This document shows positions 1,486 through 46,371 of a stretch of DNA of 64,000 nucleotides, one piece after another. Made by a program: the position numbers and the translations under genes. The notes beneath the pieces are model-generated. The model did not search any database. It saw only the letters and a list, made by a program, of their open reading frames with translations, and was not told where the DNA came from. The first letter of the stretch is position 1. Each line of letters opens with the position of its first letter. Origin of the DNA: a candidate division FCPU426 bacterium (GTDB lineage: Bacteria > Oederibacteriota > Muellerivitia > Muellerivitales > Muellerivitaceae); assembly GCA_963847625.1 (NCBI GenBank), contig CAWKAR010000013.1, forward strand, positions 1 to 64,000, read 5' to 3'.

Positions 1486-2540
1486 GCCGAATTCACGGAG
1501 TAAGTGCAACACTTCGCCGGAAGACTTCCGCCGGAGTTTTAAAGCCCAAACATTTCCTGGGTCTGTTATTGAGCCATCTTTCTATGGCCCTGAATTTTTT
1601 GAAGGACACTTTAGCAAGATCAGTCTTTTTAGGCAAATGGCGGCGGACAAGACCGATAGTATTTTCCACAGTACCTTTTTCCCAACTGTGGAAAGGGGCG
1701 CAGAAAAAGGATTTTGTACCAAGCACGTGGTTGGTTTCCAAGTGGTTGGTGTTTTCGGTTCCGTTGTCATAGGTCAGACTCAAGCGGGCGTCTTGAGGGA
1801 AGCGGCATAAAGCGCGGTTGAGGCTATGACTCATTTGGCGAGCGGTCTTTCGTTTGAGCTTTCCCAACTTGGAAAAACGGCTTTGACGCTCGACGAGAGC
1901 CCGCATAGCCACTTTACTCTGACGAGAGACCATGGTGTCGGTTTCCCAATGGCCGAATTGCTTGCGTTGATTGGCGATCTCGGAGCGCTTATCGATGGAA
2001 ACACGGCCTGGGATATGGTTTTTGGCGTGCTTACGGCTGTGGCCAAATGAGAATCGTCGCCGGTGGTGTCGAACTAGGCAAGGAATCAGCTCAGTGGCTT
2101 CAGCGTAAACCCACTGATAGATAGCTTCAGGACCAATGGTTTGCTTAGGCCGTAGGTGACCTAATCGACCTGAAATGAGTTCTGGTGACCAGCCTCGTTT
2201 CAATTGACGACGGACGTAGGCACGAATTCGTTTTGTTTTCAGGCGTAAACGGCGTGCTCGTTGTTGGTTGCGGTCAACATACCGTTGATGGGCTCGATGA
2301 GAAAGATAATAACCAGAACGGATAGGGGGAGCATTGCGCTTGAGTTCCCTGGAGAGGGTGGAAGGAGACCTCTTCAAGGCGCGGGAAATGGCTCGAAGGC
2401 TAAGACCCTTTCCTTTCAAGACGGATAAATGATCTCTTTCTTCAACGCTTAAATGCTTGTATTTCTTTTTCATAGCCGCATATCCTATTCATGCGGCCTT
2501 CTTCAGACACTAAGTGTTGCACTTACTTATGGAACTCGGG
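1486..2540 (-). mobile_element. IS30-family insertion sequence, copy 2 (1055 bp, inverted relative to copy 1)
   Basis: Same IRs; flanks atc / cca give no direct repeat. Confidence 0.95.
1493..2473 (-). CDS. IS30-family transposase
   Basis: 326 aa; differs from copy 1 at KKFRA vs KEFRT; same translation as copy 3. Confidence 0.96.
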   Translation of the reverse strand: MKKKYKHLSVEERDHLSVLKGKGLSLRAISRALKRSPSTLSRELKRNAPPIRSGYYLSHRAHQRYVDRNQQRARRLRLKTKRIRAYVRRQLKRGWSPELISGRLGHLRPKQTIGPEAIYQWVYAEATELIPCLVRHHRRRFSFGHSRKHAKNHIPGRVSIDKRSEIANQRKQFGHWETDTMVSRQSKVAMRALVERQSRFSKLGKLKRKTARQMSHSLNRALCRFPQDARLSLTYDNGTENTNHLETNHVLGTKSFFCAPFHSWEKGTVENTIGLVRRHLPKKTDLAKVSFKKFRAIERWLNNRPRKCLGFKTPAEVFRRSVALTP

Positions 2541-3583
2541 CCATTCCAATCCAAGACCACCAAATCTTTCCCCCTGAAAGCCAGGGTCAGGGATTCGGGA
2601 TTCGCGACAGCCGATTCGACGGTCACGCCGTCGTTTCCATACCAGACGGAATATTTACTGGAATCCCCGAGACGAGATAACAAGTTCCCGGCCATGGCCT
2701 CATCCATTCTTGACATCGGCGGGGGGAGAATGACCTTGACCAGGCAGTAATTGGGGATGGGGAAAAATTCGTTTTCCAATTGGGTTTCGGTTTCGACGGA
2801 AGGGGTCCAAGCAGCGGGCGCGGCGGGCGCTGACGCGCCCGAATTTTGAATGTTTAATTTTAAATTTTGAATTGAGGTAGGTTCTGCATTCGTGGCCTCA
2901 TTCGAACCGCTTGGATTATTGCCAACTGCCGGCGTAGCCGCGGCATCAGAATGATTTTGCGTGCCCTCCCAGGTTTTAAAATCATGCCACGCGCACCTCG
3001 CGAACAATATGATGAACACCAAAGTCGCGGCCCCGTAAATAGCTTCCCTAATGCCCTTCCAGTCCGGTTTTTCCCCCGGCTTTTGGGGCGGTAATTCCCC
3101 CTCCCGGCCAAAGGCCGCCCCTGGCGTTTGAACATCGGTTTTATCCCCTTCCTGGGTGTTTTTTCCCTTAACCTTTATTTGTTTTTGGGAGGGGCTTCTT
3201 CTCTTGACCCGGGTGGGGTCGAAATCCTTGACCGGTTTACCGCTTGCCATATGAACCAGGAGGCCTTTGATTTTTAGTGGGATCAGGCGATGAGAAATGA
3301 TCACATCCAATGCCGCATTGGCGGCCTTTGGAACATCATCCACCTTGCCTCTCAGGCTCGTTAGGGCCCTGGCACTATTTAAAGAGAGCTCATAGGGGTT
3401 GGTAGCTTTTGCAGCCATTCGGATCTTATTGATCGCCACTGTATCGAAACATTGGTTAAGGGCAAAATAAATAGTCAACATACGGTCGCTCGTCTTTAAG
3501 GTTTTGGCCAGTTCATCGTTATTGGGCGGGGGGTTTTTCTTTAGTTCTTTTGCTAAAAGAGTCAGATTATCCAGCCATGCCAT
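2541..3583 (-). pseudogene. ParB/Spo0J-like HTH protein with one transmembrane helix; 3' end cut by IS30, 5' end separated by IS110
   Basis: NNDELAKTLKTS...ELSLNSARALTSL resembles the ParB HTH region; hydrophobic AIYGAATLVFIILFARCAW; the ORF's stop (2510) lies inside IS30 copy 2. Confidence 0.55.
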
Positions 3584-3684
3584 ATTGCTGATATGAATGA
3601 GCCAGTCAACCTCTAAGGTTTTTCCTTTGTCTTTTCCGTATCAAGGTCCCAATGGGAACCCTGATTCCGAAAGCCCGGCTTGTT

Positions 3685-3836
3685 TCGACGATGAATCAAG
3701 CTGATATTCGCGTGTTAATCCGGTTGCCCGGTTCAGGGACGCAAGATTTTCATCCGTCGGGAGCATCCTCATTCTAAAGTCGTGGGTCGTCTCAAGCTTG
3801 CGCCATTGCGCCACATAGCAAGATCGAGGTTTCTCC
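3685..3836 (-). ncRNA. Predicted bridge RNA / seekRNA of the IS110 element
   Basis: Two stem / internal loop / stem units (CCTC/GAGG + GTGG/CCAC; GACG/CGTC + GCGT/ACGC) whose loops match the reconstructed target and circle-junction sequences; ends approximate. Confidence 0.75.
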
Positions 3837-3891
3837 GTATCGTTGCCGCGCTCTCGGAACCAAGATTCCCCTTTCATGGAACCCATGCCGC

Positions 3892-4992
3892 CTAAACCGC
3901 CTTGTATGTCTCTCGGGCGATAGCCCAAACAAACCCGGCCAACTCACGGGCTACCGCCATCACAGCAACCTGGCTCAGCTTCCCCTTGTTCACCAACCTC
4001 CAGAACTTGCGATGAAGCCGATCCTGGGCTTTCCGGGCCATTCGTTGTATTGTCTCCGGGCATTTGCGCCGTCTTTCCAACAGCGATTTTCCCGTGCCGC
4101 CATGCCGATAGCTCCAGGCGGCCTCCCCTAAAATCCGGCGGATATGGGCATTCCCAGTCTTGGTAATTCCGCCTCGCCAAATCCGTGGCCCTGTGCTGGA
4201 CTCACAAATCCCCAAGCCCGCATATCCCATGAAGTCACGCGCACTTTCAAATCTTCCAAATTCCTGAGCTTCCACCGCCAACGTCACCGCTCCCAAGGTG
4301 TCGATCCCTTTCAAGGCGCTTAGACATTCCACCATCCGCCGATAGGGCTTCTCCTGCGCCAAATCCATCACCTGTTGACTTAGTTTTTCCAGGTGGGTTT
4401 CCGTATCGTCCAAGGCCCTCAAATAAGCGTTGTGCGTCTCCTGGGCATAAACCAAATCAAAACGTTGGGCCCTCAGCCATCCCCGATGCGCCACTCCCCA
4501 AGCCTTGCTTTCCCGCCAAACGCGTCCCTGTCTCAACAGGAACTTTGACATCCGGTGCCGGGCCCTCAGTCGGTTCGCCATCACATCCTCCCTCACCCGC
4601 ACCAAGTCCCTCGCCGCCTCCTCTTCTACCCCCGGTATCCAAATCTCTGTCAACTCCCCGGCACGGTACAATTTGGCCAGCTTCACCGCGTCCCTTCGGT
4701 CTGTCTTCACCCGGTCTCCAGTCCGCACTGGCGTATGCCCGGGAGAAATCACCACGCACTTGAACCCTTTGGCGGACAACTTCCTTTGCAACTCGTACCC
4801 GCATGGCCCTGCTTCATATACAAACGTCAAGGGTCCACGGCTGCCAAGCCGGTCCATCATCCGTTCCACAGCTTTGGGCGTATTCTCGATCTTGAAGTTT
4901 TCCTTTATTTCATCCGCCCCTGTCGGCAGAACCGCCCCGACCACCGTATCCTTGTGTACATCCAGCCCGACCACTGTGATAAAATTTACCAT
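3892..4992 (-). CDS. IS110-family DEDD recombinase/transposase
   Basis: VGLDVHK, YEAGPCG, KTDRRDA; C-terminal GLGICESSTG...GGITKTGNAHIRR. Confidence 0.96.
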   Translation of the reverse strand: MVNFITVVGLDVHKDTVVGAVLPTGADEIKENFKIENTPKAVERMMDRLGSRGPLTFVYEAGPCGYELQRKLSAKGFKCVVISPGHTPVRTGDRVKTDRRDAVKLAKLYRAGELTEIWIPGVEEEAARDLVRVREDVMANRLRARHRMSKFLLRQGRVWRESKAWGVAHRGWLRAQRFDLVYAQETHNAYLRALDDTETHLEKLSQQVMDLAQEKPYRRMVECLSALKGIDTLGAVTLAVEAQEFGRFESARDFMGYAGLGICESSTGPRIWRGGITKTGNAHIRRILGEAAWSYRHGGTGKSLLERRRKCPETIQRMARKAQDRLHRKFWRLVNKGKLSQVAVMAVARELAGFVWAIARETYKAV

Positions 4993-5140
4993 GAGTCAGC
5001 ACCTCCGTATGCGGATAGGCTCCCAAAAGGAGCAACCCGCGTTTTTGGGGCGCTTTCAGCGACCCCGCTTATTCTACGCAGGTCGCTGGCTCATTCATGT
5101 TATCTAACCTTTTGTTCGTCCAAGATGGGCTCCTTTTTAT

Positions 5141-5507
5141 ACTGGGTTATCCCTCCCAGCACTGGGTTCGTGGTCTCCAGCACTGGGTTCGCGGTTCCCA
5201 GCACTGGGTTCGCGGCCTCCTGCACTGGGTTCGCAGTTCCCAGCACTGGGTTCGCGGCCTCCTGCACTGGGTTCGCGGTTCCCAGCACTGGGTTCGCAGC
5301 TTCCTGCACTGGGTTCGTAGTTCCCAGCACTGGGTTCGCGGCCTCCTGCACTGGGTTCGCAGTTCCCAGCACTGGGTTCGCGGTTCCCAGCACTGGGTTC
5401 GCAGTTCCCAGCACTGGGTTCGCGGTTCCCAGCACTGGGTTCGCGGCCTCCTGCACTGGGTTCGCAGTTCCCAGCACTGGGTTCGCGGCTTCCTGCACTG
5501 GGTTCAC
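5141..5507. repeat. Tandem array of 17 x 21 bp units (core GCACTGGGTTCG) plus a degenerate unit at 5141
   Basis: ACTGGGTT recurs every 21 bp from 5161 to 5497; the minus frame encodes NPVLGTA / NPVQEAA heptads. Confidence 0.97.
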
Positions 5508-5710
5508 AGCCCCCTGCTGGCAGGACTACCAACCCAGGTATGGGTATCTGCTTCGTGGTATTTTAAAAGTGGGATTTATTGGTGTTCCACAAAAAACTCG
5601 CTAAAAAAGGTTAATAGTTTGACCCCATTTGCATGAAAGCTGGGAATTGGGAGTGCACCGATCATCCATAAAAACAAAATGAGACCGGCACTATACCAGC
5701 CTCAATCAAC

Positions 5711-5747
5711 AAAAAAACCCGCCCCACGGGAGTGGGACGGGTTTTTT
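5711..5747. terminator. Bidirectional intrinsic terminator
   Basis: aaaaaaacccgccccac-ggga-gtgggacgggtttttt hairpin with A and T tails. Confidence 0.75.
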
Positions 5748-5757
5748 ATCGTTTCCG

Positions 5758-6085
5758 TCAGTGCGCCGAAAACCTTAAGGGCAAGTCGTCAAATTTATAA
5801 TCAATCGCAGAAGCGGTTCCCCCAGCCGTAAATGTACCCGGCATGACCGCCCACCCATTGGTGAACCAGTAGCGAGTCCCACCCGTCGAATTACTAAGTA
5901 CAGCATTACTATCCGAAAATTCAAAAGCGAGCCAATAGGTTCCCTTCGGCAGGTAAATCGCCGGCAAGCTGGCCTTATTCCGCGAATTCGCAACAACGTT
6001 TTAAGGCCCGGTTTGGTACACCAAACCGGCCGGGTAGGTGCTGCCGCTGTCGTCATAAATTCCAAACCGTATTTGGCCCGTCACG
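5758..6085 (-). pseudogene. Fragment of a secreted beta-rich protein gene with an internal stop
   Basis: One frame reads GQIRFGIYDDSGSTYPAGLVYQTGP*NVVANSRNKASLPAIYLPKGTYWLAFEF; no proper start. Confidence 0.45.
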
Positions 6086-6109
6086 GGACCCGCTCCAATC
6101 AATGGTGAG

Positions 6110-6757
6110 TCACCGGTTTTGTTCAAGCCTGCTCACATTTAAACTGTACAAACCTTCTTTATCAAATTTGCCTATGATCAGAATGGCATCGTCATAATCC
6201 ACCCTCTGATTCGTTTCCTTATTAAAAATCTTTCCTTTTCCAATCAGGGACAATTTGGTGAATTGGGACATTTCCGTTATTTTCGGGGGGGCAAAGGGTT
6301 CAGCCGAATGAATCCCACCCTTAAAAAGATCATCAAAACTTTTCTGGCTCATTCCCAGGCGGATCCCTTGCACCAAAACCCTGTCCAAGGGTTTTGTCAG
6401 CCTGAAAGTTTTCCCTTTTTTCATTTTGAAATGATCCGATTTATGAACCGTAAAGCCTAAAAGAGTTTTTTGGTCCCCGCCCTTTTCTCCCGACCAGAAA
6501 TCAATGACGATTGAACCATCCCGCGTGACGAAATAGCGGGAGTCAATATCCCCGGCGGCATCGCCGGTTGAAACGATGGGGGCCGTTCCTAATGATTTCT
6601 CTACATCAGATAAAGTATTTTTCCCCAACTGGAACCCCAAAAATTTAGTAAAGGCAAGGGGATCAAAAGCAAAGGCGGGCCGGATGAATAACAAGCTGCC
6701 CGCAACAAAAAAAAGACCAGCTAAAAACCAGTTTCCAGCTTTCATGTTTGCCCCCAT
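6110..6757 (-). CDS. Hypothetical secreted protein
   Basis: 215 aa ORF; signal peptide ending PAFA. Confidence 0.7.
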   Translation of the reverse strand: MGANMKAGNWFLAGLFFVAGSLLFIRPAFAFDPLAFTKFLGFQLGKNTLSDVEKSLGTAPIVSTGDAAGDIDSRYFVTRDGSIVIDFWSGEKGGDQKTLLGFTVHKSDHFKMKKGKTFRLTKPLDRVLVQGIRLGMSQKSFDDLFKGGIHSAEPFAPPKITEMSQFTKLSLIGKGKIFNKETNQRVDYDDAILIIGKFDKEGLYSLNVSRLEQNR

Positions 6758-6877
6758 TAAATCGATAGTAATTTTTAAACTTCCTAATATTTGCCTGCGA
6801 CCCCTGCCGATCGCTATGGAGCTATCCCCTGCGCCAAGCCGGGGGCTTGGTGCTCCCCGCCGTGGACAAGTAACGAC

Positions 6878-7054
6878 CTAAAATTTATAGACGAGTTTCG
6901 CTTTGATGTACATGGCTATTGCTCCGACAATCCAACCCGCGAAAAATATAGCGACGGGCTTGGCTTGTTCTTTACCACCCTTGAGCCAAAATAGGACGAG
7001 AACGACAGCCATAACAATGGCCACCGCGATCCCCCAACTTACGAATTTATTCAT
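6878..7054 (-). CDS. Small two-TM membrane protein (cassette 1)
   Basis: 58 aa from ATG 7054 with a GGGGG RBS; two hydrophobic helices. Confidence 0.7.
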   Translation of the reverse strand: MNKFVSWGIAVAIVMAVVLVLFWLKGGKEQAKPVAIFFAGWIVGAIAMYIKAKLVYKF

Positions 7055-7166
7055 AATGTAACCCCCGATTTTGTTGTCCAATCTGGCTCCCCGCCGTGGA
7101 CAATCAATTGTGGATTGGAGGAGAAATATTTCGATAATTTAGGCGGGGAACCGGCAATGGCATTAT

Positions 7167-7460
7167 TTAAACGGCTTTTGCTAAAATCGGCTTCTTCTTA
7201 TGGTGTATTCTTTGTGCCTTCGACAAATCATAATTTTTCTGCAAATTCAGCCACAAATCAGGAGTTGTTCTTAATACGTCAGCCAAAGACAGTGCCGCTT
7301 CAGGAGTAATCCCTCTCCTGCCATGGATGATTTCATTTATCTTGGCATGGGACCATCCTAAGTGTGAAGCAAAGGAATTTTGCGAAACACCCAAAGGTTT
7401 CAAAAACTCTTCACTTAAAATTTCACCAGGATGGGTCGGGGGCCGGGATTTTGGTAACAT
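7167..7460 (-). CDS. higA: HigA-family antitoxin (cassette 2)
   Basis: PTHPGEILSEEFLKPLG...GRRGITPEAALSLA...LWLNLQ. Confidence 0.93.
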   Translation of the reverse strand: MLPKSRPPTHPGEILSEEFLKPLGVSQNSFASHLGWSHAKINEIIHGRRGITPEAALSLADVLRTTPDLWLNLQKNYDLSKAQRIHHKKKPILAKAV

Positions 7461-7476
7461 GATCTCTCCCTTAAAC

Positions 7477-7767
7477 TTAATGGTAATCCACAATTCGAAC
7501 TTCTTCCGCCTTGTTTTCAATCCACCGGAAGGCAACACGCCATTGATCGTTTATACGGACGCTGTAAAACCCTCGCCAATTACCCTTTAACGCCTCGAAA
7601 TGATTTCCTGGCGGCACCCGTAGATCGTTGATATTCCCGGCGGCGTTAATAAAGTCCAGTAAACGCCTAGCTTTCGGGTGCAAATCCAAAGGCAAGCGTC
7701 GGGACGCCTTAGAGTTAATTCCATCGAAAACATCACGTGTTAATTTATCCGCGATGGAATGAATCAT
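7477..7767 (-). CDS. higB: HigB/RelE-family toxin (cassette 2)
   Basis: DLRVPPGNHFEALKG...YSVRINDQWR...IVDYH; located upstream of its antitoxin. Confidence 0.93.
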   Translation of the reverse strand: MIHSIADKLTRDVFDGINSKASRRLPLDLHPKARRLLDFINAAGNINDLRVPPGNHFEALKGNWRGFYSVRINDQWRVAFRWIENKAEEVRIVDYH

Positions 7768-7775
7768 TTGGGATG

Positions 7776-7804
7776 ATTATATCGTTTGTCGATATAGTTG
7801 TCAA
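7776..7804 (-). promoter_or_regulatory. Consensus sigma70 promoter of higBA with a palindromic operator
   Basis: TTGACA-17bp-TATAAT; tatatcg-N5-cgatata palindrome across the spacer; ATG 8 nt past the -10. Confidence 0.85.
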
Positions 7805-7916
7805 ATTTCAAGACGCAGTTAATCCTATTAACCGATTGATCTCCTTCCAATAAACCTGTTCAATATGGGTCCCCGTCGTGGACGATCCTTTTTAAACGTT
7901 GGATCAAATATAATTA

Positions 7917-8520
7917 TCACTTTGGGGCCAAGGCCTTGTTTCGTAATTGAATAATCATTTGGTACAACATCTCGGCTTGAGGCACATCAAAAAAGGCCAG
8001 AATGCCCTGGCTAACGCCTCTGCTAAAAAAATCCATACCAGTATTTGCATAATTAAATCTGAAACCACTTGTGGAGTTGAAGCTCAAAGAGCCGACGCCA
8101 TTCGAACCGATATATTTGTTGATCACTGGAATTTGATTAAGAAACTGGGCTTGCACTTGCCGCCCAAACCCCTCAATCACGATGATGATCCTGAGGTTTG
8201 TTATGGCGTAAAAGGTCCTTTTTTTCTTCCAAACCTTATAAAAAAACCTTCCAAAAATCATATAAAGACCAATAGCGACAAAAAGAATCCCCATAAACTC
8301 GACGAAAAACGGCGCACCATGGCTGTTCCTGTTGAGGGGGGTCAAGCCCAAGGTGTTGAGTTTCACAGACAACCGCAATTCCACCCCACATCAGGCTGAA
8401 GGGGATCATAAAAATGTCCGATTCGCTAAAAATGACCGAAGGGTCGGGTTGTCCCGACCAATAAATTTTTTCAGCGGGGATCAAATCGGTTAGAAATTCC
8501 GTTTCCAATGAATATTCCAT
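7917..8520 (-). CDS. Bacterial PH-domain-type membrane protein, split by a +1 frameshift near 8362 (cassette 3)
   Basis: EKIYWSGQP...IPFSLMWGG joins GLYMIFGRFF...RTFYAITNLRII if one A is removed. Confidence 0.7.
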
Positions 8521-8649
8521 TTTAAAAACTCCTTTCCATTCGTCTTCAAAACCTCATTTTAAAAACCTTTATGATCTTTTTTATCGATTAGAAAATGACA
8601 CTTTCCTTTGTCCACGATGGGTCCCCATCGTGGACAACCCTTTTAGCCT

Positions 8650-8961
8650 TTACAAACCCAGGGCAAATAACACGGCCTGCCGGGCCTCCAACAGTTTCAA
8701 ATGGGGCAGTGTCGTAATAAGGCCCCCTAATTTCGCCTTGGAAACGGTTTGGATATGGTCGAAGTTAACAGCGCAATCCTTCGCCAACCCTTCGCTTCGA
8801 CCCAGCTTAACTTCGCTGGGAATTTGGCGAATCGTGGAGGTGATGGGGGCCACCGTAACCTCATTCAGGTATTCAATGATGGAGTTTCGGGTCAAAATCA
8901 AAACAGGACGTTTCTTATCGGGATGGGCGAACTTGTACCAACGAACTTCTCCTCGTTTCAT
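8650..8961 (-). CDS. mazF: PemK/MazF toxin (cassette 4)
   Basis: MKRGEV...DKKRPVLILT...VTVAPITST. Confidence 0.92.
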   Translation of the reverse strand: MKRGEVRWYKFAHPDKKRPVLILTRNSIIEYLNEVTVAPITSTIRQIPSEVKLGRSEGLAKDCAVNFDHIQTVSKAKLGGLITTLPHLKLLEARQAVLFALGL

Positions 8962-9191
8962 TCGTCACCCCAGGCTTGTTCCTTCTCCCAAGCGCCGACT
9001 TCTTCCCGGGTGGCGGGATGGGTTTGGTAACCCTGGCGGTGCTGGTGTTCCAATTGTTTTATCTCCATGTTCCGGAGCGCTTCCTTGAGTGCCAACCGGG
9101 TGAACGCCGACCGGGTCGTGCGCAATTTCTTAGCCGCTTGGTCCACCGACTTTACCAGTTCGTCCTCCAGCGTCATCTGTACCGTCCTCAT
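8958..9191 (-). CDS. Ribbon-helix-helix antitoxin (cassette 4)
   Basis: MRTVQMTLEDELVKSVD...TRSAFTR; GGAGG RBS; 4 bp overlap with the toxin. Confidence 0.88.
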   Translation of the reverse strand: MRTVQMTLEDELVKSVDQAAKKLRTTRSAFTRLALKEALRNMEIKQLEHQHRQGYQTHPATREEVGAWEKEQAWGDE

Positions 9192-9323
9192 GGCCCTTCC
9201 TCCATTAGCTATAGTAATAGCTATGATTATATACATTCATAATGAAGTTTCAAGGCGGTCCGAACTCTTGTCCAATCCCACTGATTCTCGCCGCGGAACG
9301 AGGATCTCCCCGTCGTGGACGAT

Positions 9324-9731
9324 TTATTTCGCGTTTATAAAACCTTCCATCGAAACAGTAAGATATGGGGCGGCACGGCGAAGGGCACGATCCTCGGTCA
9401 CGCAGGGAACCCCGAGTTTCTGGGCCAATAGAACATATTGGGCGTCATAGGCGGATATTTTGTGATGAATGGCGACTTCTAAGGTCTCGACCGGCCCCAA
9501 TTCCACCTCATGGGGAAGAATATGTGCGTAAACATCTTCCAAGGCTTTGACTGTTCTTTCCTTAGATAATCCTCCCTGCCGGACATACGTGGTGAATATA
9601 TTGAGGATTTCATGGCGCCAAATTCCTGGCAGTCTCCAATGAGGGTCCCGTTTGCGCACTTGGAGGGCCAAAGGCGTCAGCGCCCCTTCGATGATGGAAT
9701 AAGCCAGGACGTTGGCATCCACGACGATCAA
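9324..9731 (-). CDS. vapC: VapC PIN-domain toxin (cassette 5)
   Basis: IVVDANVL...E...SAYDAQYVLLA...VTEDRAL; TTG start overlaps the antitoxin stop. Confidence 0.92.
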   Translation of the reverse strand: MIVVDANVLAYSIIEGALTPLALQVRKRDPHWRLPGIWRHEILNIFTTYVRQGGLSKERTVKALEDVYAHILPHEVELGPVETLEVAIHHKISAYDAQYVLLAQKLGVPCVTEDRALRRAAPYLTVSMEGFINAK

Positions 9732-9946
9732 GCGCGGCCTTCCCGGATTGTCTTTTTCAACCAGCCGGGCGTGATTGGAAATTTCCCTTTTATGGGCTCG
9801 GGCCAAGGGCGCTCGGAATGTCCGGACAGCGCCTCTTCCAGGAGGGCCAAAGCCTCCTTGGTCATGGACCTTCGGTGTTGTGTTGCGATTTCCTTGAGTT
9901 TCTTATGCACTGGAGCCGGTACGTTTTTAATCAAGATATCAGACAT
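9728..9946 (-). CDS. FitA/Arc-like RHH antitoxin (cassette 5)
   Basis: ILIKNVPAPVHKKLK...HRRSMTKEALALLEEAL. Confidence 0.88.
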   Translation of the reverse strand: MSDILIKNVPAPVHKKLKEIATQHRRSMTKEALALLEEALSGHSERPWPEPIKGKFPITPGWLKKTIREGRA

Positions 9947-10087
9947 AGCACTCTCCTAATGGTTCAATATCATAACAATATCATTTTAATAGTGTTTTTT
10001 CAAGTTCTTCATCCGAAGGATTCTGACCCTGCGCCTATGATTGGGTTCGTCCACTCCGGGTCCCCAGAGAGGACAAAGTTGTTTAGG

Positions 10088-10432
10088 TTATTCGAATAAG
10101 ATAATCTTGAGGTTTTCAATCAACTTTGCCTTATCCATCGGGTTTAATTCACCCAAGTGTTTTACGAACCGGCGGTTATCAATAGCTCGTATTTGATCAA
10201 CCAGCACATCGGAATCTTTCTTTAGAGGCATTCCCTTTTTGGAAAGGTGAACTCGCAGGATTTCTGCCCCACGGATGACATTAGTTGTGATGGGACAAAC
10301 AATGGTGCTGGGGTGTTGACCGTCGTTTAAAAGGTTGGTTTGGAGAACAACTACCGGTCTTGTCTTGCCAGATTCGGTGCCGAAGCGCGGGCTTAGGTCG
10401 GCCAGGTAAACATTGAATTTCCTGATCTTCAT
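10088..10432 (-). CDS. mazF: PemK/MazF toxin (cassette 6)
   Basis: YLADLSPRFGTESGKTRPVVVLQ...TIVCPITT...VDQIRAID. Confidence 0.92.
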   Translation of the reverse strand: MKIRKFNVYLADLSPRFGTESGKTRPVVVLQTNLLNDGQHPSTIVCPITTNVIRGAEILRVHLSKKGMPLKKDSDVLVDQIRAIDNRRFVKHLGELNPMDKAKLIENLKIILFE

Positions 10433-10668
10433 TGGAAGGTGGCTTCCTCGAGCTTTTCCATCTCACTCAGGATGTCCATGGAGTTCTTGCGCGTGAGCAG
10501 GGATTCTTTCAGCAGTTTTTTTCTTAGCCCTTTTCGGCGATTGAACTCATTGTAAAAATTCAACGCCTCGTTGATATAGGCGTTCCGGGGCATTTGAAGC
10601 ACTTTGGTTATGGATTCCACATCCTCGAAAATCTCCCCTTTTATTTTAAGTGACAAGACTTTGGTCAT
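10429..10668 (-). CDS. Antitoxin, RHH-like (cassette 6)
   Basis: LSLKI...PRNAYINEAL; 4 bp overlap with the toxin. Confidence 0.82.
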   Translation of the reverse strand: MTKVLSLKIKGEIFEDVESITKVLQMPRNAYINEALNFYNEFNRRKGLRKKLLKESLLTRKNSMDILSEMEKLEEATFQ

Positions 10669-10904
10669 TTTTTAGCTCCTCAAGCGGTATATACCTTTAG
10701 TATATACTATTCGGCTAGAAAGGATGCAAATTTCATCAAATTTTCGTCCAATCAGGGTCCCCGGATTGGACAACTTACAGAGCTTTTATTTAGCGCTTTG
10801 GGATAAACGGCGGAAATTCTTTGAAATCGGGCGGATTCGTGAAATCTATTTATTAAATTCGGGATTATTGGGCAATGCGTTTAATTTAAAGGACAAAACA
10901 ACTT

Positions 10905-11891
10905 TTATTCCAGATTGACCATTTTCTTCATGGCTTCCCCGTAGCGTTCCCCATGGACCTGGAAGGTCGTGAGAATCCGCATGATTGAGGAAACATCCTG
11001 ATTGGATAACTGGATACCGGCGGCCCTGGCGTTTTCCTCCAGGTGCCTCACTTTGGTGGTGCCAGGAATGGGGACTACATCCTTCCCCTTTTGAAGAAGC
11101 CAAGCGAGCGCGATTTGGGAAGGGGTGGCTCCCTTTTCTTGCGCCAGCTTTTTCACCTCATCCACCAGCCTTATGTTTTGCTTGAAATTCTCATCCTGGA
11201 ACCGGGGCAGGTTCCGGCGCATGTCCTTCTCGTCAAAATCCTCAAATTTCCGGATCTGCCCGGTCAAGAACCCCCGTCCCACGGGACTGAAGGGGACCAG
11301 GCCGATGCCCAGTTCCCTCACCACGGGAAGGATTTTCTCTTCCAAGCTGGTTTCCCAAAGGGAATACTCGCTTTGAAGGGCGCTGATGGGATGGACCGCG
11401 TGGGCCCGTCGGAGGGTCTTAGGACCCACTTCGCTCAAGCCGATGTATTTCGCCTTGCCTTCCTTCACCAGGGTGGCCATGCCGCCGACTGTCTCTTCGA
11501 TCTGAACTTTCGGGTCAACCCGATGAAGGTAAAAAAGATCCACGCAATCAATGCCCAGGCGTTTCAGTGAGCCTTCCAGGGCGCGTCGGGCGTTCGCGGG
11601 CGAGCCATCCATGTTTTCGGGGCCGGACTGTCCGTTTTTCCAGGCGAATTTGGTGGCGACCACCACTTTGTTCCTGCGCCCCTTGAGCGCCTTGCCCAAT
11701 AGTTCCTCGTTCAAAAAAGGTCCGTAGGCTTCGGCCGTATCCCAAAAATTGATTCCCAGCTCCAATGAGCGGTCCAGGGTGCGCAGGCACTCGGCCTCGT
11801 CGGCTTTCCCATAGGCGAAACTCATTCCCATACAGCCCAGCCCCAAAGCCGATACTTCCAAGCCTTGTTTTCCTAATTTTCTTTTCTCCAT
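10905..11891 (-). CDS. Aldo/keto reductase
   Basis: LGLGCMGMS, DTAEAYG, VVATKF, DLFYLHRVDP, QSEYSLW, PIPGT. Confidence 0.95.
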   Translation of the reverse strand: MEKRKLGKQGLEVSALGLGCMGMSFAYGKADEAECLRTLDRSLELGINFWDTAEAYGPFLNEELLGKALKGRRNKVVVATKFAWKNGQSGPENMDGSPANARRALEGSLKRLGIDCVDLFYLHRVDPKVQIEETVGGMATLVKEGKAKYIGLSEVGPKTLRRAHAVHPISALQSEYSLWETSLEEKILPVVRELGIGLVPFSPVGRGFLTGQIRKFEDFDEKDMRRNLPRFQDENFKQNIRLVDEVKKLAQEKGATPSQIALAWLLQKGKDVVPIPGTTKVRHLEENARAAGIQLSNQDVSSIMRILTTFQVHGERYGEAMKKMVNLE

Positions 11892-12104
11892 ACGATACTC
11901 TCCAATAAGCAATGGTTTGAGCTTAACCAACCGTCAAGCCTGGATTTTCCGGATGACCTTATCCGGCTCCACCGCCGGGTAATGGGTTACTCATTATACC
12001 GCCCACAACTTCTTCCACCCCCTCCTTATTTTTACGGCCAGGGTCAGCCATGGCGCCGGAGGTTCCATGCGGCGGGAGCGATGTTGTAATGGGTTGAAAC
12101 GCAC

Positions 12105-45296: not shown

Positions 45297-45316
45297 TTAA
45301 CACCTTTTTCAATCTT

Positions 45317-46371
45317 CCCGAGTTCCATAAGTAAGTGCAACACTTAGTGTCTGAAGAAGGCCGCATGAATAGGATATGCGGCTATGAAAAAGAAATACAA
45401 GCATTTAAGCGTTGAAGAAAGAGATCATTTATCCGTCTTGAAAGGAAAGGGTCTTAGCCTTCGAGCCATTTCCCGCGCCTTGAAGAGGTCTCCTTCCACC
45501 CTCTCCAGGGAACTCAAGCGCAATGCTCCCCCTATCCGTTCTGGTTATTATCTTTCTCATCGAGCCCATCAACGGTATGTTGACCGCAACCAACAACGAG
45601 CACGCCGTTTACGCCTGAAAACAAAACGAATTCGTGCCTACGTCCGTCGTCAATTGAAACGAGGCTGGTCACCAGAACTCATTTCAGGTCGATTAGGTCA
45701 CCTACGGCCTAAGCAAACCATTGGTCCTGAAGCTATCTATCAGTGGGTTTACGCTGAAGCCACTGAGCTGATTCCTTGCCTAGTTCGACACCACCGGCGA
45801 CGATTCTCATTTGGCCACAGCCGTAAGCACGCCAAAAACCATATCCCAGGCCGTGTTTCCATCGATAAGCGCTCCGAGATCGCCAATCAACGCAAGCAAT
45901 TCGGCCATTGGGAAACCGACACCATGGTCTCTCGTCAGAGTAAAGTGGCTATGCGGGCTCTCGTCGAGCGTCAAAGCCGTTTTTCCAAGTTGGGAAAGCT
46001 CAAACGAAAGACCGCTCGCCAAATGAGTCATAGCCTCAACCGCGCTTTATGCCGCTTCCCTCAAGACGCCCGCTTGAGTCTGACCTATGACAACGGAACC
46101 GAAAACACCAACCACTTGGAAACCAACCACGTGCTTGGTACAAAATCCTTTTTCTGCGCCCCTTTCCACAGTTGGGAAAAAGGTACTGTGGAAAATACTA
46201 TCGGTCTTGTCCGCCGCCATTTGCCTAAAAAGACTGATCTTGCTAAAGTGTCCTTCAAAAAATTCAGGGCCATAGAAAGATGGCTCAATAACAGACCCAG
46301 GAAATGTTTGGGCTTTAAAACTCCGGCGGAAGTCTTCCGGCGAAGTGTTGCACTTACTCCGTGAATTCGGC
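45317..46371 (+). mobile_element. IS30-family insertion sequence, copy 3, with 3 bp target duplication CTT
   Basis: Same IRs; ctt at 45314-45316 and 46372-46374. Confidence 0.96.
45384..46364 (+). CDS. IS30-family transposase
   Basis: Same 326 aa translation as copy 2. Confidence 0.96.
   Translation: MKKKYKHLSVEERDHLSVLKGKGLSLRAISRALKRSPSTLSRELKRNAPPIRSGYYLSHRAHQRYVDRNQQRARRLRLKTKRIRAYVRRQLKRGWSPELISGRLGHLRPKQTIGPEAIYQWVYAEATELIPCLVRHHRRRFSFGHSRKHAKNHIPGRVSIDKRSEIANQRKQFGHWETDTMVSRQSKVAMRALVERQSRFSKLGKLKRKTARQMSHSLNRALCRFPQDARLSLTYDNGTENTNHLETNHVLGTKSFFCAPFHSWEKGTVENTIGLVRRHLPKKTDLAKVSFKKFRAIERWLNNRPRKCLGFKTPAEVFRRSVALTP

Follow-up and report, generated by a model that had tools for sequence, protein, structure and literature searches.

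Integron-like gene cassettes bounded by a 30-bp site in an uncultured bacterial lineage, with a short serine recombinase as candidate catalyst

Integrons are the textbook route by which bacteria stockpile and shuffle single genes, and to our knowledge all known integrons depend on one tyrosine-recombinase family and on folded attC sites. An attC site spans 57-141 bp, carries RYYYAAC...GTTRRRY cores, and forms an imperfect hairpin that is recombined as a folded single strand. Here we analyse a 64,000-nucleotide stretch of contig CAWKAR010000013.1 (C13; the whole stretch is called the window below) from the genome of a candidate division FCPU426 bacterium (G000; 4.43 Mb in 63 contigs), in which a series of small accessory genes is divided by copies of a 30-bp palindromic site. 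We have high confidence that mobile cassettes are bounded by this site and that exchange takes place at it. A probability of roughly 0.6 is given to the fuller reading that the element is the crossover site of an integron-like cassette system whose most likely catalyst is a short serine recombinase, and our confidence that this particular protein is the enzyme is moderate.

The arrays described below resemble integrons, and also the clusters of attC sites lacking integron integrases (CALINs), in several respects. They are co-oriented series of unrelated cassettes, most of which carry a single gene or a toxin-antitoxin (TA) pair, and many of them have no adjacent recombinase. As in integrons, a site follows each cassette, such that n cassettes are accompanied by n+1 sites, and species of a single genus differ completely in their cassettes. 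A group II intron uses the sites as targets, and the cassette pool of TA pairs and GNAT, DinB-like, glyoxalase and cupin genes is also one familiar from integrons. However, the site is 30 bp long, lacks RYYYAAC/GTTRRRY cores and has arms that do not covary; clusters without a nearby integrase therefore exist here as they do among CALINs, but their sites are not attC. The candidate enzyme belongs to the serine class and lies in convergent orientation at the downstream end of its array, and the TA cassettes carry promoters of their own. The integron integrase IntI (TIGR02249, cut-off 265 bits) was not found in any of the six genomes searched for it, with best scores of 45.3 bits in G000 and 67.2 bits in G001, the other genome in the genus of G000, and with no match at E ≤ 1e-10 in G002, G011 and G016. 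An earlier reading made from the sequence alone had proposed an integron-like array built on a site that is neither attC nor dif, and the length of the site, its TTGTCCA/TGGACAA ends, the lack of covariation and the lack of IntI all agree with that statement.

The second kind of system that invites comparison is based on dif sites, which are AT-rich, have an 11-6-11 layout with XerC and XerD arms, and alternate in orientation around modules. Excerpts of three reports on Acinetobacter plasmids describe pdif modules, served by XerC/XerD, in which accessory modules that include TA pairs are bounded by sites of ~28 bp and shuffled between replicons (PMC6449649, PMC13141974, PMC7399989). The arrays studied here likewise consist of discrete modules bounded by short sites, with no module-encoded recombinase. 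In contrast to pdif, their sites are GC-rich 14-2-14 (or 11-8-11) direct repeats that are chromosomal and linked to a serine recombinase. Full-text literature searches, judged on listings and abstracts, brought up no account of this site or of cassette arrays served by a serine recombinase, and as far as we can tell the gene-cassette system is unpublished.

The 30-bp site and the arrays that it bounds

The site is composed of two inverted 14-bp arms, with the ends TTGTCCA and TGGACAA, around an asymmetric centre, GGG-TC-CCC; its orientation is given throughout as TTGTCCA...TCCCC...TGGACAA. Among 97 aligned copies, the central TCCCC is near-invariant (T12 in 96/97, the following CCCC in 94-97/97). 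Conservation is also strong in the outer arms, whereas the four inner nucleotides of each arm vary. The right arm is better conserved than the left, with GTCG in 48 of 92 right arms versus CGAC in 19 of 92 left arms.

Despite the symmetry of the site, its arms do not evolve as the two sides of a stem. The inner four nucleotides are complementary in 13 of 92 sites, compared with 11.7 ± 2.4 when arms are shuffled among sites, and the mean number of paired inner positions is 2.14 versus 2.06 ± 0.08 after shuffling. A nested hairpin repeat (H2) from the same genome served as a positive control and does covary, with 6.16 of 9 positions paired versus 4.05 ± 0.2. Because the arms show no covariation, the element is, as judged from its sequence, a double-stranded protein site and not a hairpin. 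A role as an intrinsic terminator was rejected, since the site is not followed by a T-run and the five terminator-like calls include none of the seven window sites. The flank of the site on the gene strand is purine-rich. An Rfam search of positions 6000-11,500 gave nothing relevant, its sole match being to a miRNA model (E = 0.17).

In the window, the first site of the array, at its upstream end in gene orientation, is located at 10744..10773 (tcgtccaatcaggg-TC-cccggattggacaa). Four more full sites follow at 10047..10076 (tcgtccactccggg-TC-cccagagaggacaa), 8608..8637 (ttgtccacgatggg-TC-cccatcgtggacaa, with perfectly palindromic arms), 7856..7885 (ctgttcaatatggg-TC-cccgtcgtggacga) and 7074..7103 (ttgtccaatctggc-TC-cccgccgtggacaa), all on the plus strand. 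The five 14-2-14 sites with a central TC that had been listed earlier are thus all present and point in the same direction. The two ‘right halves’ listed with them, at 6854 and 9307, are instead copies of the site disrupted by a nested hairpin that belongs to a second repeat family. One of these, the terminal disrupted site (6826..6869, plus strand), has no left arm and reads CCCCT, a nested H1 hairpin (6831-6853) and the right arm TCCCCGCCGTGGACAA (6854-6869). The other is a long-form site (9268..9322, plus strand) with the left arm TTGTCCAATC, the letters CCCACT, a nested H2 hairpin of 24 nt (9283-9306) and the right arm TCCCCGTCGTGGACGA; it is probably inactive because the insert destroys the 14-2-14 spacing. 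At the counterpart of the terminal site, the homologous cassette in G001 (L091) has kept a full left arm before the H1 hairpin. When the window is searched with the pattern proposed earlier, GTCCA-N7-TCCCC-N4-[TA]GGAC, with up to three mismatches, 12 matches are obtained (the five sites on both strands and two others); 100 dinucleotide-preserving shuffles gave a mean of 3.63 ± 1.74 matches, and no shuffle gave 12.

All cassette genes reside on the minus strand, as the open reading frames (ORFs) bear out. Cassette 1 (6878..7081) encodes a small membrane protein of 58-67 aa. Cassette 2 (7167..7767) holds higB (7477-7767) and a helix-turn-helix (HTH) antitoxin gene (7167-7460/7538), and cassette 3 (7917..8520) encodes a membrane protein in two overlapping ORFs (7917-8384 and 8236-8520), possibly the outcome of a frameshift. 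The remaining three are TA pairs: a ribbon-helix-helix antitoxin (8958-9191, RHH_1) with MazF (8650-8961) in cassette 4 (8650..9236), a FitA-like antitoxin (9728-9946) with a PIN/VapC toxin (9324-9731) in cassette 5 (9324..9946), and an antitoxin (10429-10668) with a second MazF (10088-10432) in cassette 6 (10088..10668). Pfam matches support the identities that had been assigned to HigB and its HTH partner, to both MazF (PemK) toxins, to the FitA-like/PIN pair and to the RHH_1 partner of the first MazF, but the partner of the second MazF and the membrane modules of cassettes 1 and 3 match no Pfam family. Stop codons lie 9, 64, 32, 13, 2 and 12 nt from a site. A site is found 19-100 nt upstream of the start codon of the next cassette, and the TA cassettes have their own consensus promoters between site and start codon (e.g. 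7804-7776 in cassette 2 and 9253-9226 in cassette 4). The array is flanked by a backbone gene for an aldo-keto reductase (10905..11930, minus strand; Pfam), at which synteny with G001:C3 begins. The stop codon of this gene is 132 nt from the first site, and no site follows its orthologue in G001.

The same arrangement recurs across the genome. With up to two mismatches, the pattern has 52 forward and 37 reverse matches in G000, compared with 13 and 7 for a reversed-pattern control. From 141 right-half matches, 69 candidates were retained by eye, comprising 39 full short-form sites, ~10 long forms, and a remainder that is right-arm-only or doubtful. Approximately 27 of the 69 have no recognisable left arm, and a few are false, being similar to tRNA 3ʹ ends or the ends of other elements. 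The sites group into 28 clusters, spread over 21 contigs; 17 clusters consist of a lone site, and orientation is uniform within each cluster. An ORF of at least 80 aa on the opposite strand ends no more than 150 nt to the right of 30 of the 39 full sites, whereas the mirror arrangement is seen for 7, and so the better-conserved arm faces the stop codon of the upstream gene. The median distance from stop to site is 33 nt, and some sites lie between convergent genes. The sites are therefore genome-wide but clustered and tied to gene 3ʹ ends, and are not scattered regardless of gene boundaries, the outcome that would have spoken against cassettes in the sequence-only reading. The genes in G000 cassettes encode PIN, MazF, HigA, ParE-like, cupin, DinB-like, glyoxalase, GNAT, nitroreductase, NHL-repeat and unknown proteins, with a few housekeeping genes at array edges, and cassettes elsewhere likewise hold unrelated accessory genes (TA pairs, GNAT, HAD, DinB-like and others).

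Long arrays occur in related genomes. G002 and G018 represent two species of another genus, and a G002 array on contig C2 packs 14 sites into 10.6 kb and is closed by a full site at either end, with cassettes for a zinc-ribbon protein, an outer-membrane protein barrel, HAD, GNAT and NHL proteins, BrnT/BrnA and a LOG-like protein. A 28.5-kb contig of another genome (G031:C15) carries 19 co-oriented sites, and 28 of its 31 ORFs are on one strand. Arrays that end in full sites on both sides hold n cassettes between n+1 sites. A cassette that is a transposon with 14-bp terminal inverted repeats would be expected to leave half-sites at array ends; full sites were found, and this candidate was rejected. 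No recurrent array-flanking gene emerged from an all-against-all ORF comparison of 18 loci.

Beyond G000, 17 of the 18 further family genomes contain the motif (with at most one mismatch), at 1 to 62 matches per genome, as do 3 of 12 genomes from other families of the phylum, with at most one match each. In a scan of one genome per prokaryotic species, nearly all of the at least 81 matches listed are from metagenome-assembled genomes (MAGs) of uncultured bacteria, with several sites per contig. Five of the matches listed are lone ones in unrelated taxa, which is about chance level for 18 fixed bases. Viral contigs gave no site matches.

Gene-strand bias is very strong around the G000 clusters (e.g. 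on C13, C3, C19, C27 and C63). Around clusters with plus-strand sites, ~80% of large genes are on the minus strand, and the converse figure is ~72%. Cassettes follow the local majority gene direction in ~25 of 27 scorable clusters. The sign of GC skew matches site orientation at 16 of the 28 clusters and is uninformative.

Relocated cassettes and their breakpoints

Five of the window cassettes have homologues, 77-94% identical, at five different places in G001. Cassette 1 corresponds to G001:C4:720388 (85% identical, between long-form sites), cassette 2 (higBA) to C10:125396 (82%), cassette 4 to C4:649685 (77%), cassette 5 (fitA-vapC) to C4:1301621 (85%), and cassette 6 (mazF2) to C4:680138 (90-94%). 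This dispersal is what would be expected if, as suggested earlier, the modules are captured as separate units. Cassette 6 has a further homologue in G031:C15, recognised by blastp and by a three-way alignment, and a site lies directly upstream of the mazF2 cassette in the window, G001 and G031 copies. Similarly, two cassettes of the C19 array in G000 map singly to other loci in G001. Cassette protein families also recur in the arrays of different genomes, as is observed for the MazF pair in the window, G001 and G031.

A second comparison is provided by the 14-site array of G002. Its left flank is conserved in G018, yet no G018 site is present within 18 kb there. Only three segments of the array (BrnTA, GNAT and NHL) have homologues in G018, and these are located elsewhere. 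Full sites bracket the BrnTA cassette in both genomes, and homology between the two copies stops at the sites.

The best-resolved breakpoint comes from a cassette for a solo Cas1 (346 aa) that resides in arrays of G001, G002 and G031. The three proteins are 99.7-100% identical and the 1505-nt cassette unit is 97-99% identical, which is far above backbone identity. All three copies share the upstream end TTGTTCACGAAGGG-TCCCC, consisting of the left arm and GGG-TCCCC. Beyond TCCCC the next four bases are GTCG, GGAA and GCCG, and the flanks differ too. Homology between the fitA-vapC cassette of the window and its G001 counterpart starts exactly at TCCCC, with unrelated sequence to the left. The crossover is therefore placed by both cassettes inside the invariant core GGG-TCCCC, and the anticipated location of strain breakpoints at the site is borne out by the one that is best resolved.

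A short serine recombinase and competing explanations

Small serine recombinases act on two inverted arms around a central dinucleotide, at which both strands are cut. The recombinase domain of large serine recombinases touches ~12-13 bp on the flank of the central dinucleotide, in line with arms of 14 bp. The 14-2-14 geometry of the site, its invariant TC, and the breakpoint in GGG-TCCCC would be compatible with a serine-recombinase crossover site.

The window itself encodes no such recombinase, as had been stated: there is no resolvase-domain gene on C13, and the sole tyrosine-recombinase match on this contig (C13:179829) falls outside the window. On contig C61 of the same genome, however, a serine recombinase ORF (C61:35485-36312) stops 8 nt short of a site, beyond which comes an array on the opposite strand. 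The protein is short (274-281 aa in eight full-length sequences, and ~275 aa for the copy in G031). It matches PF00239 (Resolvase) at residues 13-159 with 80.7 bits and PF07508 (Recombinase) at residues 187-273 with 44-53 bits, the latter as far as model position 102/102, where the protein ends. Zinc-ribbon and coiled-coil domains are absent C-terminal to the recombinase domain. The active-site serine motif YVRVSSK(E/G)QE is present in 8 of 9 compared sequences, and the ninth (L235) is N-terminally truncated. Orthologues of the same length, 76-81% identical, occur in G002 and G018, and a further copy in G031.

Linkage between this gene and the site is consistent. Metagenome searches returned 80 loci, the first 32 of which were analysed. 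Seven of these are at least 72% identical to the short recombinase, and the six with a complete 3ʹ end all stop 0-7 residues after the match. The site or its left arm lies 8-111 nt after the stop codon in all ten readable loci (G000, G002, G018, G031 and six metagenome contigs), so that the suggested check for a recombinase next to a terminal site gave a positive result at loci outside the window, C61 among them. The site has the same orientation at seven of the ten, has a reversed centre at one, is cut by a contig end at one and is degenerate at one, and arrays follow the recombinase in G000, G002 and G031. In the other 25 analysed relatives (54-67% identity), the 260 nt downstream contain no right half-site. 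Of these, 18 are complete ORFs of at least ~500 codons (17 of 501-550 and one of 875), one has 319 codons (L258), and six run off their contigs. The ratio of non-synonymous to synonymous substitution rates (dN/dS) is 0.03-0.11 in the 16 pairs, out of 21, that have a finite dS, a sequence-based sign that the short gene is under purifying selection. Truncation of the C61 recombinase by array insertion was considered and rejected, given that no orphan C-terminal piece was found and that the orthologues, which are under purifying selection, share this domain boundary as their end.

The nearest NCBIfam models are CcrB, CcrA and XisF, with scores far below cut-offs. The candidate shares its YVRVSSKEQ catalytic domain and its recombinase domain (PF00239 + PF07508) with large serine recombinases such as phage integrases, CcrA/B, XisF and TnpX. 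It differs from them in length (274-281 aa versus ~510) and in the lack of the zinc-ribbon and coiled-coil domains, which set attP x attB directionality; in addition, it would act on arrayed copies of one short palindrome and not on an attP/attB pair. The same genomes have full-length paralogs that are 50-57% identical to the short form and ~245 residues longer. G000 has four or five such paralogs (~515 aa), whose loci include C39:128109-129653, the end of C24, the start of C63 and C57:7774-8985. Two of them lie at the ends of contigs, and a third, next to a tRNA-like 3ʹ end, carries a frameshift; all are probably integrases of integrated elements.

In the mechanism that we propose, a circular cassette with one site would recombine with a resident site to yield n cassettes between n+1 co-oriented sites, recombination between two direct sites would excise a cassette again, and the asymmetric TC centre would keep arrays co-oriented. 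The catalyst would be the short relative of large serine recombinases, equipped with catalytic and recombinase domains but no zinc ribbon or coiled coil, and a dimer of it would cut at the central dinucleotide of the 14-2-14 site. Its gene lies against the final site of one array, convergent with the cassettes, and the protein would work in trans at ~28 other clusters, including that of the window. We infer the circular intermediates, the cutting at TC and the role of this protein from the features described above. The original suggestion that a serine recombinase possibly operates in trans gains support from the site-linked gene, with catalysis as the inferred step.

Several observations weigh against this proposal. 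No copy of the short recombinase was recovered (E ≤ 1e-20) from 16 of the 19 family genomes, and genomes without it include site-rich ones, namely G001 (30 matches), G006 (45), G011 (29), G016 (24) and G003 (15). No PF00239 match was obtained in G011, which is 99% complete, or in G016, and G001 still holds a recently moved Cas1 cassette. In favour of the enzyme, the three family genomes with the gene have 38, 61 and 62 motif matches and the 16 without it a mean of 12.4, a contrast that is not independent evidence since two of the three are congeners. Genomes without the gene are draft MAGs, and metagenome copies are mostly on 1-3 kb contigs. The gene may often be unbinned because it resides beside repeats and its metagenome copies are on short contigs, although it may also be truly absent. 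The recombinase gene further differs from intI in that it occupies the downstream end of its array in convergent orientation; the recombinase-adjacent site of L232 has a reversed centre, and that of G018 a degenerate right arm. Positions 9-11 of the site (GGG) vary, with GGC in 9/92 and ACC in 6/92. Among the cassettes, the mazF2 units of G001 and G031 terminate with the stop codon and lack a main site on the 3ʹ side, such that only the window copy has one, and the higBA homologue in G001 has no site on either side. A clean empty site was not found between G000 and G001, whose flanks are rearranged, and neither circles, empty sites in a syntenic pair nor activity was observed. For positions 6000-11,500, a public peat-metagenome run (8% of sampled words), the sole public run to contain part of the locus, yielded short contig pieces without joints, which are uninformative on circles and cassette loss.

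The site-rich genomes that lack the short serine recombinase would be accounted for if a tyrosine recombinase worked in trans, either the single Xer-like enzyme of the host acting as on dif modules or integrative mobile elements exploiting Xer (IMEXs), or one of a family of ~370-aa integrases. The site would then be read as 11-8-11 with a lox-like, asymmetric overlap of 8 bp, GGGTCCCC. PF00589 is the only recombinase class present in all five site-rich genomes tested, the ~370-aa family occurs in 16 of 18 family genomes, and the unequal conservation of the GTCG and CGAC arm segments resembles that of XerD and XerC arms. We nevertheless regard this explanation as unlikely. No tyrosine recombinase abuts a G000 array, the nearest being 14-45 kb off; the ~370-aa family extends to site-poor genomes (G004 has four copies and two sites) and beyond the family within the phylum; positions 9-11, which would form the left part of the overlap, show variation; and the arms are unlike the consensus arms of dif. 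The seven ~370-aa paralogs were accordingly rejected as the enzyme, being present in site-poor genomes and not beside arrays. It is also conceivable, though decidedly improbable, that no dedicated enzyme exists and that the repeats serve as homology anchors or fragile palindromes for RecA-dependent or break-induced shuffling. Many arrays indeed lack a neighbouring recombinase, degenerate and half sites are frequent (the ~27 of 69 without a left arm), and some cassette homologues lack sites. Homology or fragility alone, however, would not be expected to produce a near-invariant asymmetric centre, strictly co-oriented arrays, conservation of the same 30 bp across many genera, or the linkage of a purifying-selected recombinase gene to the site at ten of ten loci.

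Two further explanations dispense with cassette exchange at the site. The element shares with repetitive extragenic palindromic (REP) sequences and bacterial interspersed mosaic elements (BIMEs) its short palindromic form, its extragenic placement at gene 3ʹ ends and its use as a target by other mobile elements. It could thus be a selfish or structural palindrome, spread as a hairpin in single-stranded DNA or RNA by a REP-associated tyrosine transposase (RAYT; Y1 family) or retained as a 3ʹ-untranslated-region stabiliser or terminator, that accumulates after genes in variable islands. Its ~70 copies, the three Y1_Tnp genes of G000, and the fact that a group II intron and nested hairpins target it, as they do REPs, terminators and attC, would fit such an origin. 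We consider it very unlikely, because the arms do not covary, unlike those of the genuine REP-like hairpin family that coexists in G000 and is sometimes nested inside the site; because the terminator hallmarks are missing, as described above; and because single co-oriented copies bound cassettes, with whole cassettes rather than 30-bp insertions or deletions forming the blocks of homology between genomes. The Y1_Tnp genes are not flanked by the site and occur throughout the phylum, including families without the site, and none was found in G018 with its 62 matches. A double-stranded palindrome whose half-sites vary independently, 19-100 nt before a start codon, might alternatively be the operator of a dimeric DNA-binding protein, such as a regulator or silencer of acquired genes, with no role in mobility. 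The position of the site is tied to the stop codon of the upstream gene, though, with some sites between convergent genes, and cassette homology ends at sites. An operator also leaves the asymmetric centre and the recombinase linkage unexplained, and we find this scarcely credible.

Four other candidates were tried and rejected. Solo Cas1 as the enzyme occurs in only 8 of 31 genomes and is itself a cassette. The DEDD transposase of the IS110 family has 14 copies in G000, but none was found in G002, G011, G016 or G018. The loci of Y1_Tnp/RAYT genes lack the site, and their phyletic pattern differs from that of the site. A 1055-bp insertion sequence (IS) has inverted repeats that are unrelated to the site.

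Returning to the crossover site and its serine recombinase, we see about an even chance that they constitute an independent analogue of integrons, built from a stripped large serine recombinase and a minimal 30-bp site, that is active now and passes cassettes between genera; recent exchange is suggested by the 97-100% identical cassette of three genomes with its junction in the site core. Such a system would be the first in which gene capture relies on a serine recombinase, would mean that gene-capture platforms evolved more than once, and would explain the turnover of accessory genes in a poorly known, uncultured lineage of soil and peat. It would also offer a very small pair of recombinase and site (~275 aa and 30 bp) as a candidate genetic tool. 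The arrays show, moreover, that entire classes of cassette array escape searches based on IntI and attC.

Other repeats and mobile elements near the arrays

The second repeat family, whose members disrupt the window sites at 6831-6853 and 9283-9306, starts with CACT or CCCT and has a 9-bp stem and the loop TGCGGT; a variant has the stem-loop CCAAGCC-GGGGG-CTTGG. At least 20 stand-alone copies are present in G000 (e.g. C27:122653, C57:89158 and C3:40759). At least 7 of the 9 stem positions pair in 32 of the 49 candidates found by pattern, and compensatory changes occur in the stems; the family is REP-like. The three Y1_Tnp genes of G000 (317-355 aa) might mobilise it.

The solo Cas1 (TIGR00287, 251 bits) is accompanied by an unannotated ORF of 111 aa and is near-identical in its three genomes, at L210 (G001:C5) 10444-11875, L211 (G002:C1) 5462-6858 and L203 (G031:C15) 1146-2186. 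The unit ends at a 36-nt sequence that resembles a repeat of clustered regularly interspaced short palindromic repeat (CRISPR) arrays, and L213 (G001:C6) 2388-6700 is a further locus of this group. There are 12 copies of this 36-nt repeat in G001, 10 in G002, and at least four on G031:C15, the one G031 contig examined. Among 31 genomes searched, only G001 and G002, both with this Cas1, have the repeat, and the 29 other relatives have no copies. The copies follow single genes at a spacing of 1-1.6 kb, and in this they resemble a second cassette-bounding site.

Two identical group II introns without ORFs are found in G001 (L062, C4:30000-45000) at 4938-5666 and 8846-9574, with matches to RF02005 (70.6 bits) and RF00029 (47.8 bits). 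Both interrupt a 30-bp site, with ...GGGGACCCG on one side of the intron and TCGTGGAC on the other, and both follow the gene orientation. Three tyrosine recombinase genes are located just beyond the introns, at 10641-13923 of L062.

Insertion sequences also occur near some arrays. The 1055-bp IS, which encodes a 326-aa transposase, is present in the window at 1-1050, 1478-2543 and 45316-46371, and G000 as a whole has ~40 copies that are nearly identical. Its insertions fall in AT-rich spacers, and several copies are within 100 nt of a 30-bp site (on C38, C26 and C3). One of the 14 IS110-family (DEDD) transposase genes of G000 lies in the window at 3892-4992 on the minus strand, and another is 1.5 kb from the C55 array. 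Finally, the window has a tandem repeat region at ~5100-5640 with several open frames on both strands, whose translations contain peptide repeats.

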